Positions 14,068 to 21,809 of a stretch of 32,000 bases of DNA are shown one piece after another. Within the stretch, counting starts at the first letter, position 1. The number at the start of each line of letters is the position of its first letter. Made by a program: the position numbers and the translations under genes. The DNA lies in assembly GCA_038858525.1 (NCBI GenBank), contig JAWCFL010000001.1, positions 60,001-92,000 on the forward strand, read 5' to 3'. The stretch is from Candidatus Jordarchaeales archaeon (GTDB taxonomy: Archaea > Asgardarchaeota > Jordiarchaeia > Jordiarchaeales > Freyrarchaeaceae). The notes below the pieces were generated by a model. The model was not told the origin of the DNA. It made no database searches and saw nothing but the letters and a program-made list of their open reading frames with translations.

Positions 14068-14187
14068 CACGAAAAAATTAATAACGTCTCGAACAACAAG
14101 CTCGCTGAGCGCCCCGGTGGTGCAGCCACCCTACAGCTATAACGGCAGAGCATAAGGGATATCATAAGCCCTAAATCTCAATCCCCC
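14068..14187 (+). repeat. Decayed direct-repeat copy of the tRNA-Asp promoter and 5' part (partner at 15915-16032)
   Basis: CACGAAAAAATTAATA vs CACGAAAAATTTAATA, each ending 28 nt before GCCCCGGTGGTG. The shared ACAACAAG..GCTGAGCGCCCCGGTGGTG continues through homologs of introns 1 and 2; there is no T arm or 3' acceptor strand. Confidence 0.85.
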
Positions 14188-15623: not shown

Positions 15624-15914
15624 CCACCCCTCAGTGTATTAAACTTTGCGCTCTCAAAGCCATCCCCTCACCCACAACCCCACCAGAACGCACCCGGCGC
15701 CACTCTCTCCCAACACCCATACACACAACCACTCTAACCCCGAGCCAGCAACCCACCCGAACCAACAATAACGCACATAAAAGCACTACTTAATCCACAC
15801 AACCAAAGACGACCACCACGAAATCACCCCCAACAGCCCTAACCAGCCGCAACAAAACCACAACAACAAAAAACACAACACAGCTACACCCCCAAACGAA
15901 ACCACCCCGCCAAC

Positions 15915-15930
15915 CACGAAAAATTTAATA
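15915..15930 (+). promoter_or_regulatory. BRE/TATA promoter of tRNA-Asp
   Basis: GAAAAA followed by TTTAATA, ending 28 nt upstream of mature G1; conserved in the duplicate copy. Confidence 0.7.
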
Positions 15931-15957
15931 GCACGCCACACAACAAGTTTGCTGAGC

Positions 15958-16115
15958 GCCCCGGTGGTGTAGCCACCATAAAACGGCTGTAACGGCCGAG
16001 CATACGGGACAGTGATAAGCCCCTAATGTCAACGACGGTGGCAGAACTCCCGCGACCCGGGCGGTGCACCCTTTTTTGGGTGTATTAGGGATTTCAAATC
16101 CCGGCCGGGGCGCCA
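15958..16115 (+). tRNA. tRNA-Asp(GUC) with four introns (17/17a 15975-15992; 32/33 16011-16026; 37/38 16032-16046; 53/54 16062-16092); CCA encoded
   Basis: Removing 80 nt gives the 78-nt GCCCCGG UG GUGU AGCCCGGCCGA GCAU A CGGGA CUGUCAC UCCCG CGACC CGGG UUCAAAU CCCGG CCGGGGC G CCA. Each insert forms a BHB-like motif. Confidence 0.9.
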
Positions 16116-16213
16116 TTCCTTCTTGTTCGTTGGTTTATGTTTTCCTTATTTTTAAGGAATAGTGGGGTTTTTACGTAAATTATTTAAGTTTTGTGTTGGG
16201 CAAGGTTTAGGTA

Positions 16214-16357
16214 GGGCGGGTAGTCTAGAGCGTGGTGTGCGGGGAACTTGGTATGATTCCTCTGTTTTGGGGAATGAAACCGGGTTTGGGACCCGGAGGC
16301 CCTGGGTTCAATGCTGCAGCGTGATTTTCGCTGGGCGAGTAGATCCCAGCCCGCCCA
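16214..16357 (+). tRNA. tRNA-Pro(UGG) with three introns (15/16 16229-16246; 25/26 16258-16278; 58/59 16312-16342); CCA not encoded
   Basis: Removing 70 nt gives the 74-nt GGGCGGG UA GUCU AGCUUGGUA UGAU A CCGGG UUUGGGA CCCGG AGGCC CUGGG UUCAAAU CCCAG CCCGCCC A. A TATTTAAG box lies about 25-30 nt upstream. Confidence 0.88.
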
Positions 16358-16396: not shown

Positions 16397-17962
16397 GTGA
16401 AGTTTGCGTTGAAGGGTTACATGGAGCTCAGTGATAGTATTCCTAATGAGGCGATTGGTGAGATTGAGAGGTTTTTAGGTGATGTTCGTGATGCCCTTTT
16501 CTTGAGGGGTGTTCCTCGTGGACGGGAGAGTGAGGGGGCGCGTCTAATCGGGTGGAGGGTGGAGGGTGATAGGTTCTATGTTGAAATTGAGAGTGGTAGG
16601 TATGTGCGTGCTCATGTTGCTTTTGTTAGGTTGAGAAATGCCCTGGCGGGTTTTCTTGGTTCTAAGTTTAGTGTTGGTGTTCGATCTTGTAGGGTGTTTG
16701 ATTATGTTTTGGAGTTTGAACTTGAAAGAGAGCCCTTGGAGCCTGTGAGTGTTTTGTTTGCGAGGGATATCAAGTTTGACGGTAAGAAGGTTACGGTTTT
16801 CTTGGAGGAGCTGAATGACGAAGCCTTAGAGAAGAATTACCCTGACCGTGTAATAAGTCGGATTCGTGAAAAGGTTTCGAGGCAGCATGTTTCAGGTAAG
16901 GGAGAATTCACTCGCACGGTTAGACGTAATGTTAAAGGATTTGAGAGGTATAAGCTGAGTGAGGACCCAACCGAGGTGGCGGTTAAGCTTGGTTGGGTTA
17001 AAGAGTACCCTGCAGCGGGGATTTGGCAAATTATGCCGCCTATGGCGGCTTTGATTAGAGCTATGGAGGGGCTAATTGTCGACGAGGTTGCTAAACCTCT
17101 CGGGTTCCAAGAGGTTATGCTTCCACGTCTCATTCCACTTGAAGTTGAGTATAGGAAGGGGCATTTCGGAATTGCAAACGAGATTATTTGGGCTTGCCCA
17201 CCAGTTTCCCGGGATCCGAAGGAGTTCGAGGAAATTATGGATTACGTCGAGATAACCGGCGGCCCCCCGCCTGCTGAAATGCTGAGAGAGAAGCTCAGAC
17301 CACCCATGTATGGTCTTTCATATGCTCAGTGTGAGCCCTTCTACGAGATGTTTCATGGGGAGATAGTGGACTTGGACCTTTTAGAGAAGGAGCCAATTAT
17401 GCTTTTTGATAGAAATGGACCGACGTACCGGTGGGAAAGCGGGGGGCTTAGGGGGCTTGAGAGGCTTAATGAGTTTCACAGGGTGGAGCTTGTTTTCCTT
17501 TCAACGCCTGAGAAATGTGTTGAGATAAGGAACGCTATACTTGAGAGGGCGGAAAAAGTTGTTGGCGAGATTCTGGATCTAGATTATAGAGTGGACGCTA
17601 CTACTGCCGTGTATCTTGAACATGCAGGAAAGACCGAGGAGAGAAAGGAGGAAGAGGACTTGGTTAAAACATATGACTTAACTGTTCTCTTGCCTTTCCA
17701 GACAAAAAGCAGGCCTGAAGCTGAACTTGAAGTGGCAAGTTTCCACGTTCACACGGATTTTTATGCCAAACGATTTAGTTTCAAGGATAAGAAAAGAAGG
17801 ACAGTCTTTACCGGGTGTGCTGGACTTGGCCCTTCAAGGTTTGCTTACGTTTTCTTAGTGAGGTATGGATTTGACTTTGAAGGATGGCCTTCTGAGGTCA
17901 AAGGATACATAGGGGACAAGCTTCCTGAGCCGCCACACATGCTGACATGGCCGAAGAGGTAA
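16397..17962 (+). CDS. serS: Seryl-tRNA synthetase, methanogen (type 2, zinc-dependent) form
   Basis: 521 aa with N-terminal ESGRYVRAHVAFVRL; YAQCEPFY, YRWESGG, EFHRVE and GCAGLG supply the Cys/Glu/Cys Zn ligands of mSerRS. Confidence 0.92.
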   Translation: MKFALKGYMELSDSIPNEAIGEIERFLGDVRDALFLRGVPRGRESEGARLIGWRVEGDRFYVEIESGRYVRAHVAFVRLRNALAGFLGSKFSVGVRSCRVFDYVLEFELEREPLEPVSVLFARDIKFDGKKVTVFLEELNDEALEKNYPDRVISRIREKVSRQHVSGKGEFTRTVRRNVKGFERYKLSEDPTEVAVKLGWVKEYPAAGIWQIMPPMAALIRAMEGLIVDEVAKPLGFQEVMLPRLIPLEVEYRKGHFGIANEIIWACPPVSRDPKEFEEIMDYVEITGGPPPAEMLREKLRPPMYGLSYAQCEPFYEMFHGEIVDLDLLEKEPIMLFDRNGPTYRWESGGLRGLERLNEFHRVELVFLSTPEKCVEIRNAILERAEKVVGEILDLDYRVDATTAVYLEHAGKTEERKEEEDLVKTYDLTVLLPFQTKSRPEAELEVASFHVHTDFYAKRFSFKDKKRRTVFTGCAGLGPSRFAYVFLVRYGFDFEGWPSEVKGYIGDKLPEPPHMLTWPKR

Positions 17963-18977: not shown

Positions 18978-21809
18978 TTACTCGATATAGATGCCAGGCT
19001 TTAATGGTTCAGCAACTTTAGCCTTTTCATGCGTTGATCTTTCGGCGAGTGAGACCTCGACCTCCGCTTCAAATTCTCGCCCAATGAATGATAAAGCGGA
19101 CTTTATAGCGTCTAGTTCTTCCTCTTGCGTGAGGATTACTGGTGGAAGCTCCTTCATTAGTTTTTCCGCGTACTTCACAGCCTCCTTACCGTGCACTCTA
19201 ACTTCTGGGGTCTGCATCACGCGTTTTACTAGTCCTTCTTTTTCTTTAACGGCTTCTTCTAGTACTCTGTATTTCCAGCGTGGAGCAACAAACAGAAGGA
19301 TGCGAGTCGGCTTTTTACCCGTCACATTTATGATTTCTCTTATGTCGTTTACGAGATTCTCAAGTAATGCTTCCTTTCCTTCTACCACATCGTTGAAGTA
19401 TTTCTCGTCGTATTCAGGCCATTTTTCGGTAACTATAAGAGTTTTTTCCCCCATTTTTTCCCATAACTCCTCACATAAGTGAGGTACAACTGGAGCCAGC
19501 AGGAGAACCATTGTTTTTACGGCTTCCCTGAGTATGTCACCGTATTCGTTTGTCCGCCTCATGTACCATCTTAAGTCGTTCCATATATTGAAAAGACACT
19601 CTTGTATGGCGGACCTAGTTTTTAGGGATTCGTAATTTTCGGTTGCAGCTTTTATTCTTCGGTGTAGCCGGCTTCTAAGCCATCTGTCTATCTCCCTATC
19701 AAGAGGTTTTGTTGGTGGGAGGTTGACGACGAAGTCGTATAACGCTTCAAGGCGTCTTTTGAGCCCTTGAACTTCCTTATCTCGCCAGTCGGGGTCGTTT
19801 AATTCCTCAGCAGCATAAGCCAGCCCGATTCTCGTGACGTCAGCACCATACTTGTTTAACGCTTCACGCATTGTGATGAAGTTCCCCTTAGACTTAGACA
19901 TTTTTTCTCCTTCAACTCGTATCATACCGTTGACTCCTATTTTGCGAGGCCACTTATCTTCAGGCCAGATCGCCACATGATGAAACAGGAAGAATGTGAG
20001 ATGATTAAAAACTAGTTCCTTGGCGGAAACTCTTAGTTCCACAGGGTACCAATACTCGAACTCATCACGCATAGTTTCTAGAAGCGCCTCATCAAGCCCG
20101 CTCTTGGATGCAACTTCCTCTAAGCTCCCCTCACCGAGAAAAACATAGTTGAAAACTTCAGGCGTAAGTTTGCTCGCATCTATATTAAAGAGGTTAAAGT
20201 ACTTTGCTAAAGTATAGAAGGCCATGTATATCGTCGAGTCAGAGAGAGTCTCGACTATCCATTCACGATCCCATGGCAGACGGGTCCCTAACCCGGTCTT
20301 GCGGACGCATGCCTTGTCCTCAAGCCATTCGATAGTACTCTCAAAGGCGTTCCTTGCTTCTTCGGGAAGGATTACCATCATCCTCAGTAGGCGGTAAACT
20401 TTCTCCTTCCACTCTGGGTCAGAATACCTTAGAAACCACTGGTTCTCAAGTATCTTAACTATGCACTTAGTATTGCATCGACATATGACCGTGTCGGCGC
20501 ACTCATACATAACGTCGGCCTTATTTTCAGTTATAAGGTCATCAACTAGGACACGTTTAACAGACCTAACAGGCATTCCACTATATTTGCCTGCGTTCTC
20601 ATTAAGTACGCCTTTATGGAATTCTTTTTTGTATATTTCCTTGGTGAGCTCCTCAAGCCTCGGGTCAAGCTGGTTTGTCACACCAGCATTATCGACAGCT
20701 TCTACTGCAGGATTTTCCCCTAAGCCCTCTGTTCTTATCAGGCTTATGGGTTTCAATTCTTTAACTACATCCACGGAAACATTATACTTATTGAGAAGCG
20801 CAGGGTTAGACCTTAACTCCTTTATTGCAGCCCAGTCATATGGAGCATGGCTAGGTACGCTCATAACCACTCCGGAAGCGTTGCTAGGATTAACGAAGAG
20901 TGCTGGAAGAATTGGCACTTTGTTGCCTAAAACAATATTCTTACAGAGTTTTCCTACAAGGAAGCTTCCTTTAAACGATTCAAGAACCTCAACTTGTTTC
21001 CCTTGTGCTCTAAGTTTGGGAACGGCATCTTCGCTCACAATCCAAAACTCGTTATTACACTTAGCTCGGACATATGTTGCATCCGGGTTAACCCACATGT
21101 TGGTAACACCGAACACCGTTTCAGGCCTTAATGTCGCAGCCATCAAGAAAGCGCCATCCAGTTCAAACTTCAACAAAACGAACTCAACATAAGAGACGCC
21201 TTCCCCCACGAGGCGGTCATGGTCACCTGTTGGACTTTCACAATTGGGACACCAGATAACGGGGTGCGTTCCAAGGGAAACGTATCCCCGTTCTCTCAGC
21301 TTAAGATACTGCCACTCGATAAAGCGGTTATAACATGGGTCTATTGTTGTGAACTGACGCCGCCAATCAACAGAGAAACCAATCCGCGTAACGTCTTCTA
21401 TCGCTTCACGTCGGTAATACTCAACAATGTAACGAGGATCCTTAAACTTCTCAATCTCCTCCTCTGGTACACCACCCCTCACCAAAATTCTAATCTGTTC
21501 TTTATCGCCTTTGCGAACTCTTTCAGCCACTCCAACTATAGGTTCACCTGTTGCGTGAAAAGCGAATGGAAAAAGAACGTTAAAACCCTGCATTCTTTTA
21601 ACACGAGCATAGATATCAGCCTTTAAACAAGTAAAAGCATGTCCCAAGTGGAGACGACCATTAAGGTACGGGTAAGGGAAGGTTACAAGCAAACCTTTCT
21701 CTTTTTTCCCGGTTCTTTTACCTTTTGGCACTGGGTCGGCTTCAAAAACTTTGGATTCAGCCCAGCGCCTCTGCCATTTTTCCTCTATGCGGTTCCAGTC
21801 TACCTCCAT
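18978..21809 (-). CDS. leuS: Leucyl-tRNA synthetase (archaeal/eukaryal type)
   Basis: TFPYPYLNGRLHLGH (HIGH), KMSKS and a CP1 editing domain with ATLRPET and GVVMSVPSHAPYD. Confidence 0.97.
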   Translation of the reverse strand: MEVDWNRIEEKWQRRWAESKVFEADPVPKGKRTGKKEKGLLVTFPYPYLNGRLHLGHAFTCLKADIYARVKRMQGFNVLFPFAFHATGEPIVGVAERVRKGDKEQIRILVRGGVPEEEIEKFKDPRYIVEYYRREAIEDVTRIGFSVDWRRQFTTIDPCYNRFIEWQYLKLRERGYVSLGTHPVIWCPNCESPTGDHDRLVGEGVSYVEFVLLKFELDGAFLMAATLRPETVFGVTNMWVNPDATYVRAKCNNEFWIVSEDAVPKLRAQGKQVEVLESFKGSFLVGKLCKNIVLGNKVPILPALFVNPSNASGVVMSVPSHAPYDWAAIKELRSNPALLNKYNVSVDVVKELKPISLIRTEGLGENPAVEAVDNAGVTNQLDPRLEELTKEIYKKEFHKGVLNENAGKYSGMPVRSVKRVLVDDLITENKADVMYECADTVICRCNTKCIVKILENQWFLRYSDPEWKEKVYRLLRMMVILPEEARNAFESTIEWLEDKACVRKTGLGTRLPWDREWIVETLSDSTIYMAFYTLAKYFNLFNIDASKLTPEVFNYVFLGEGSLEEVASKSGLDEALLETMRDEFEYWYPVELRVSAKELVFNHLTFFLFHHVAIWPEDKWPRKIGVNGMIRVEGEKMSKSKGNFITMREALNKYGADVTRIGLAYAAEELNDPDWRDKEVQGLKRRLEALYDFVVNLPPTKPLDREIDRWLRSRLHRRIKAATENYESLKTRSAIQECLFNIWNDLRWYMRRTNEYGDILREAVKTMVLLLAPVVPHLCEELWEKMGEKTLIVTEKWPEYDEKYFNDVVEGKEALLENLVNDIREIINVTGKKPTRILLFVAPRWKYRVLEEAVKEKEGLVKRVMQTPEVRVHGKEAVKYAEKLMKELPPVILTQEEELDAIKSALSFIGREFEAEVEVSLAERSTHEKAKVAEPLKPGIYIE

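Follow-up and report, generated by a model that had tools for sequence, protein, structure and literature searches.

The 158-nt segment at positions 15958-16115 of the plus strand of the window, the whole stretch of 32,000 nt analysed here, raises the question whether a gene with more intron than exon can supply a cell with one of its essential tRNAs. Our answer is that it very probably does. As read from the sequence, the segment would be a working tRNA-Asp(GUC) gene, apparently present in one copy, of a hot-spring archaeon of the Asgard class Jordarchaeia, a Candidatus Jordarchaeum; EndA would splice four BHB introns from its transcript, and RtcB would join the exons. Five exons of 17, 18, 5, 15 and 23 nt, all on the plus strand, alternate with four introns of 18, 16, 15 and 31 nt, and introns account for 80 of the 158 nt. 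Exon 1 (15958-15974) holds the 5' strand of the acceptor stem, nucleotides 8-9, the 5' strand of the D-stem and the D-loop to position 17, at which point intron 1 (15975-15992, 18 nt) enters the D-loop at 17/17a. Exon 2 (15993-16010) contributes the remaining D-loop, the 3' strand of the D-stem, nucleotide 26, the 5' strand of the anticodon stem and C32, and is followed at 32/33 by intron 2 (16011-16026, 16 nt). The anticodon itself lies in exon 3 (16027-16031), a micro-exon of 5 nt, UGUCA (TGTCA in the DNA), made up of U33, the anticodon G34-U35-C36 and A37. Intron 3 (16032-16046, 15 nt) occupies the canonical 37/38 position; exon 4 (16047-16061) resumes with C38 and runs through the 3' strand of the anticodon stem and the 4-nt variable loop to the 5' strand of the T-stem; intron 4 (16062-16092, 31 nt) sits at 53/54; and exon 5 (16093-16115) brings the T-loop, the 3' strands of the T-stem and acceptor stem, the discriminator G73 and a genomic CCA. 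This is the gene model of a preliminary description made from the letters of the window, which had placed a tRNA-Asp(GUC) with four introns at exactly these coordinates and had pointed out the 5-nt anticodon exon; all of its elements are present, and the model is right in every detail.

With the introns taken out, ARAGORN calls the 78-nt product, CCA encoded, as tRNA-Asp(gtc) over positions 1-78 and folds the whole 78-mer into a full cloverleaf, in which the acceptor stem has 7 bp, the D, anticodon and T arms are regular and the variable loop has 4 nt. Typical of Asp acceptors are G73, C38 and G10.U25, identity elements known from work on yeast and E. coli, and the spliced molecule carries all of them. 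Intron-poor tRNA-Asp genes in other Asgard genomes share 80-95% identity with the mature sequence, and the 23 nt of exon 5 are matched at 100% identity in several distant ones. Upstream, a purine-rich BRE-like stretch and a TATA-like TTTAATA (15917-15930, plus strand), about 28-34 nt 5' of tRNA position 1, form a putative archaeal promoter as read from the sequence. Archaeal RNA polymerase terminates at oligo-T, and for this reason the T-rich tract 3' of the gene (16116-16160, plus strand) is likely to be the termination region. The strand composition around the gene is asymmetric: the plus strand is nearly all A and C upstream (about 15800-15915) and rich in G and T downstream (16116-16300). 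Two mechanically predicted ORFs of 61 and 63 aa on the minus strand (15884-16116) lie over the tRNA gene and are almost certainly spurious.

Do the four junctions look like substrates of the archaeal tRNA splicing endonuclease? We scored them against the standard BHB definition, in which 4 exon nucleotides just 5' of the 5' bulge form a helix with 4 intron nucleotides just 5' of the 3' bulge, the bulges are 3 nt each and cleavage falls after the second bulge nucleotide; the same definition is given in the available text of a recent preprint (bioRxiv 10.64898/2026.10.13.758758). In this register the central helices are those of the preliminary description: GUAG/CUGU with 4 of 4 pairs (two of them G-U) for intron 1, CGGG/CCCU with 3 of 4 (a C27.U mismatch) for intron 2, CUGU/GCAG with 4 of 4 for intron 3 once intron 2 is removed, and CCCG/AGGG with 3 of 4 (a G.A mismatch) for intron 4. 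All four qualify as central helices of archaeal BHB introns, introns 2 and 4 as members of the relaxed class; a central helix of three pairs is, in the preprint's available text, the class called permissive on its own (bioRxiv 10.64898/2026.10.13.758758). Each intron has a flanking helix (h or h') of at least 2 bp: the inner helix h' measures 2 bp in introns 1, 2 and 3 and 9 bp (9-11 across species) in intron 4, and the outer helix h measures 1 bp in intron 1, 5 bp in intron 3, where it is the anticodon stem, and 2 bp in intron 4, intron 2 having none. In four of four introns the 3' bulge consists of AA or AU followed by the first exon base. When each intron was shuffled in place, with the boundaries fixed by the cloverleaf alone and motifs compared by their central-helix and inner-helix pairs, the observed pairing proved rare for every one of them (P = 5.5e-4, 1e-2, 4e-3 and 5e-5 for introns 1 to 4). 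Minimum free energy (MFE) folds, which are of limited weight here in that the cloverleaf of the mature tRNA was not recovered either, contain, for the primary transcript, the three pairs of the intron-2 helix and put the strands of the intron-1 and intron-4 central helices into other pairings.

The 5-nt exon imposes a particular relation between its two neighbours. Intron 3 builds its central helix with C32 to U35, the first of which sits beyond intron 2; the primary transcript thus offers intron 3 a motif with a 3/4 central helix and an outer helix of 1 bp, and the full hBHBh' structure forms after intron 2 has been removed. MFE folding follows the same pattern: the full precursor contains the intron-2 helix, and that of intron 3 shows up only when intron 2 is out. 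Because the canonical intron-3 motif needs C32 contiguous with the anticodon stem, removal of intron 2 before intron 3 would be the preferred order; because the 3/4 version of the motif is present in the primary transcript, it would not be an obligatory one. Such dependence between closely spaced introns has already been described in the tRNAscan-SE 2.0 paper (PMC8450103). The machinery is at hand: the genome encodes two EndA-family proteins (PF01974, ORFs of 191 and 198 aa) and one RtcB (PF01139). The two EndA paralogs lie at C3:81835-82089 and C43:5978-6235. Among solved structures the best matches of both PF01974 ORFs are archaeal EndA chains, one protein being closest to the heterotetramer chains of Aeropyrum and Pyrobaculum and the other to the enzymes of Methanopyrus and Methanocaldococcus. 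We therefore picture a pathway in which the gene would be transcribed as a precursor of about 158 nt, EndA, represented by these two family members, would excise the four BHB introns, with intron 2 preferably leaving before intron 3, on either side of the 5-nt anticodon exon, and RtcB ligase would join the five exons into a 75-nt tRNA with its encoded CCA. That the transcript is spliced, the order in which this happens, and where transcription starts and ends are what we infer from the sequence.

A gene built in this way is easily overlooked. The unspliced tRNA-Asp gene gives no match with ARAGORN, intron mode on or off, or with Rfam cmscan at the gathering threshold, so the expectation that scanners would miss it holds for the simple scanners tried; this silence was to be expected and is uninformative about the gene itself. 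Across the whole assembly of 2.09 Mb ARAGORN reports 11 tRNAs, and 5 matches to RF00005 lie above the cut-off; with so few scanner-detected tRNAs, most tRNA genes of the organism are therefore interrupted. In a rough census, a noisy reference-guided spliced alignment to be read as a lower bound, every one of the 19 strictly filtered loci carries an insert of at least 10 nt, 10 of these loci carry three inserts or more, and inserts average about 2.3 per gene. Free introns let random DNA reach scores of 60-70 in this kind of alignment, several of the census references themselves held unrecognised introns, and the tRNA-Asp locus was not recovered via distant Asp references.

Is this the only tRNA-Asp gene of the genome? 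We aligned the mature sequence to both strands of the whole assembly with free long gaps; the locus scores 125 of 150, and the next-best loci, with 83 and 81, are both tRNA-Glu genes. The check for another tRNA-Asp that had been suggested at the outset thus returns none in the 92.7%-complete assembly. The genome of a second Jordarchaeum species (G002, 95% complete in 8 contigs) likewise contains a single full-length tRNA-Asp match.

The tRNA genes related or adjacent to this locus are elaborate as well. A tRNA-Glu(CUC) gene, read by hand on the minus strand at C1:94604-94739, 2.6 kb past the window end, has three introns, two of them at the tRNA-Asp positions 17/17a and 53/54 and of similar sequence. 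In the tRNA-Glu(UUC) that ARAGORN calls on contig C12 near 60177 (minus strand), an insert ends in TAGGGAA just 5' of the T-loop. These likenesses point to common ancestry of the Asp and Glu introns or to a common BHB constraint acting on their sequences. At 14068-14187 (plus strand), 1.8 kb upstream of the tRNA-Asp gene, its promoter-like element recurs at the same spacing, followed by a 5' tRNA fragment. This fragment combines an acceptor strand resembling that of tRNA-Asp and a D-arm with a Glu-like anticodon loop, CUC, and introns 1 and 2 have shortened homologs in it. The neighbourhood contains no 3' half, and a pseudogene, the scar of a duplication or one half of a split tRNA are possible readings. 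On the other side, 98 nt 3' of tRNA-Asp, lies a tRNA-Pro(UGG) gene (16214-16357, plus strand) interrupted at three non-canonical positions, by inserts of 18, 21 and 31 nt, and not at 37/38; with the inserts removed, ARAGORN calls a 77-nt tRNA-Pro(tgg), and CCA is not encoded. Directly 3' of both tRNA genes is a seryl-tRNA synthetase of the rare methanogen type (16397-17962, plus strand; Pfam tRNA_bind_4 and a class II core). Elsewhere, a 225-nt tRNA-Tyr(GUA) locus (C3:78516-78740, plus strand) contains, by alignment, four large inserts or more. A donor of the four tRNA-Asp introns was sought in the rest of the genome, and apart from one match to intron 1 only chance-level matches were found. 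The one match, of 17 nt and exact, lies at C46:12223-12239 and covers the final base of exon 1 and the 16 nt of intron 1 that follow it (chance expectation about 0.001); it is without evident BHB geometry and without obvious coding context on that strand.

Comparison with close relatives bears on whether the locus is a working gene. We compared the source genome (G000) with three other, independently assembled Jordarchaeum species (G001, G002 and G003). Across the four the exons differ at 1 of 78 positions, a C/U difference at position 16 in the D-loop. Introns 1, 2 and 4 are 58-94% identical with indels, intron 3 is identical in its two carriers, and in the flanks 3 of 21 columns on each side are invariant. 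From G003 and G001 intron 3 is absent as an exact 15-nt gap, and so it behaves as an intron and not as tRNA sequence. The pairing elements of the introns are retained through change. The intron strand of the intron-1 central helix is CUGU in three species and CUAC in G001, making four Watson-Crick pairs with GUAG, and in the intron-4 hairpin 7 of 9 pairs show compensatory substitutions with both sides changed (RNAalifold on the four species, from exon 4 through intron 4 to exon 5). Intron 4 begins with T in the three congeners and with C in the source genome.

These comparisons also bear on three other ways of reading the locus. The gene may be real and the count or the boundaries of its introns different, one insert being retained as an expansion of the tRNA or one junction being shifted by a nucleotide. 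Introns 2 and 4 do have imperfect central helices, the T that begins intron 4 in the three congeners permits a 54/55 placement with the same product, and the intron-2 junction can be moved to 31/32, which would put A32 in place of C32. Yet the shifted registers, scored by hand, retain 2 of 4 central pairs for intron 2 at 31/32 and 2 of 4 for intron 1 at +1, the C at the start of intron 4 in the source genome fixes 53/54 there, and a retained insert would break the D-loop, the anticodon loop or the T-loop of an otherwise canonical tRNA; we regard a different intron count or boundary as unlikely. We give slightly less credence still to the idea of a decaying pseudogene or an assembly artefact at this locus, with the working tRNA-Asp residing elsewhere, for instance in the roughly 7% of the genome that is missing. 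The assembly is indeed incomplete at 92.7%, and the truncated paralogous 5' fragment 1.8 kb upstream demonstrates that tRNA-derived debris exists nearby; against this, the same architecture recurs in four independently assembled genomes, with exons nearly invariant while introns and flanks have diverged, the 95%-complete G002 has one full-length match only, the promoter-like element and the encoded CCA are intact, and no other Asp-like locus was found in the assembly.

Least probable of all, to the point of being negligible, is that, instead of being EndA substrates, the inserts splice themselves or are mobile (group I or group II introns, insertion sequences). Nothing specific favours this beyond the general fact that group I introns occur in some bacterial and organellar tRNA genes. 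A group I or group II ribozyme core takes hundreds of nucleotides, but the inserts, at 15-31 nt, are far too short to hold one; Rfam recognises no family in the window, and all four inserts have BHB geometry. A split or permuted tRNA gene was considered separately and is ruled out by the five exons, which are collinear inside 158 nt. The reading that accommodates these observations remains that of a functional, EndA-spliced tRNA-Asp gene with four introns.

How did four introns come to lie in one short gene? The window also encodes a leucyl-tRNA synthetase (LeuRS; 18978-21809, minus strand), which is 89% identical to that of Candidatus Jordarchaeum sp. LHC_1308, 86% to that of Jordarchaeia archaeon QC4 and 64-66% to those of Freyarchaeota; these identities assign the source genome to Jordarchaeum. 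G004, a genome labelled 'Thermoproteota archaeon S9B3_HD70', has a LeuRS 78% identical to it, and LeuRS and tRNA-Asp together place G004 with the Jordarchaeia, as a sister genus. Its tRNA-Asp gene (C31:3039-3202) has four introns too, at 17/17a, 32/33, 46/48 and 58/59, all with 4/4 central helices, the one at 32/33 being a perfect ACGG/CCGU. Within Jordarchaeum, G000 and G002 have introns at 17/17a, 32/33, 37/38 and 53/54, and G001 and G003 at 17/17a, 32/33 and 53/54. Farther out, G006 (Freyarchaeia-1) has introns at 45/46 and 53/54, in keeping with the two published for it, three Odin genomes have the 53/54 intron only, and G019 and G016 have no tRNA-Asp introns. The 53/54 intron of G006 and the three Odin genomes has, as read from their sequences, a CCCG/CGGG helix without mismatch. 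We parsed the orthologs of G004 and G006, whose anticodon stems differ, by hand and checked them with ARAGORN and BHB scoring. Four-intron tRNA-Asp genes thus occur in two genera with two positions in common, and the family uses six positions in one gene.

The 37/38 intron is absent from all of the outgroups (G004, G006, Odin, G019 and G016). Most parsimoniously, it would have been gained in the common ancestor of G000 and G002, if these two are sisters; the U16 common to G001 and G003 is consistent with such a grouping. We tentatively propose, rating the whole scenario at a little under an even chance, that the 32/33 intron is the older one and the 37/38 intron a recent gain within the genus, placed 5 nt away from it, that this created the 5-nt anticodon exon and hierarchical splicing, and that the sister genus reached four introns independently through 46/48 and 58/59. 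If true, the tRNA-Asp locus of the Jordarchaeaceae would be a live record of tRNA-intron turnover, usable to test how introns arrive.

Is a tRNA gene with four introns exceptional? The preliminary description gave three as the usual maximum, and this is what a 2014 review (Fujishima and Kanai, PMC4033280) and the 2021 description of tRNAscan-SE 2.0 (PMC8450103) state. That figure is overtaken by Valentin-Alvarado et al. (2024, Nat Commun, PMC11291895), who report introns in 92-95% of the tRNA genes of Freyarchaeia and Atabeyarchaeia and whose Suppl. Data 4 has four-intron columns, listing Arg-TCT, Ile2-CAT and Leu-GAG of Freyarchaeia and, for Atabeyarchaeia-2, Trp and Lys-TTT, the latter with four introns by tRNAscan-SE and three by R2DT. 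In its available text, a preprint of October 2026 (bioRxiv 10.64898/2026.10.13.758758) puts intervening sequences at 2.0-2.4 per gene in Jordiarchaeaceae, the family of the source genome, and in Freyrarchaeaceae, and at up to five in one gene for these two families and Atabeyarchaeaceae pooled, and remarks that D-arm introns are often missed by annotators; the rough census of the source genome is in accord with this. Four-intron tRNAs have therefore been reported, judging from these two sources as available (PMC11291895; bioRxiv 10.64898/2026.10.13.758758), if not commonly, and the suggestion that four introns as such are novel is out of date. The gene belongs to the upper tail of a known distribution and is a well-supported extreme example, not a record. 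The structure of the Jordarchaeum tRNA-Asp, its 5-nt anticodon exon and the presence or absence of the 37/38 intron within the genus are not described in the available main texts of the related surveys; new here is the four-intron tRNA-Asp of the sister genus, with two introns at other positions.

The finding leaves the known kind of system unchanged; it adds an essential tRNA that can be made only after four splicing events, its anticodon exon lying between introns with overlapping motifs. It confirms that simple tRNA finders under-annotate the Jordarchaeia, and it offers a compact substrate of 158 nt for studying the substrate range and cleavage order of an Asgard EndA, together with closely related presence and absence states at one locus as material for a study of intron gain and loss. 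The multiple-intron tRNA genes of Thermoproteales, reportedly described by Sugahara et al. in 2007 and 2008, are a natural point of comparison. Like the gene studied here, they are spliced by EndA, have introns at non-canonical positions and include cases in which one intron has to leave before the next BHB forms (PMC8450103), and one EndA subunit of Jordarchaeum most resembles the crenarchaeal heterotetramer chains; unlike the gene studied here, they belong to another phylum and have a stated maximum of three introns per gene versus four here (PMC4033280, PMC8450103). The nuclear tRNA genes of the red alga Cyanidioschyzon merolae carry up to three ectopic introns (Soma et al. 2013, PMC3728597); BHB-type introns there too occupy the D-arm, the 37/38 site and the T-loop, and their removal follows an order that depends on motif stability (PMC3728597). 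The setting there is a eukaryotic nucleus, and the order was shown by RT-PCR (PMC3728597), whereas in Jordarchaeum it is predicted. Closest are the tRNA genes of Freyarchaeia and Atabeyarchaeia, which belong to the same phylum (Freyarchaeia to the same GTDB order) and likewise have short BHB-type introns at canonical and non-canonical positions, mostly several per gene. Even there, the tRNA-Asp of Freyarchaeia has two introns, at 45/46 and 53/54 by our own parse, in contrast to the four of Jordarchaeum.
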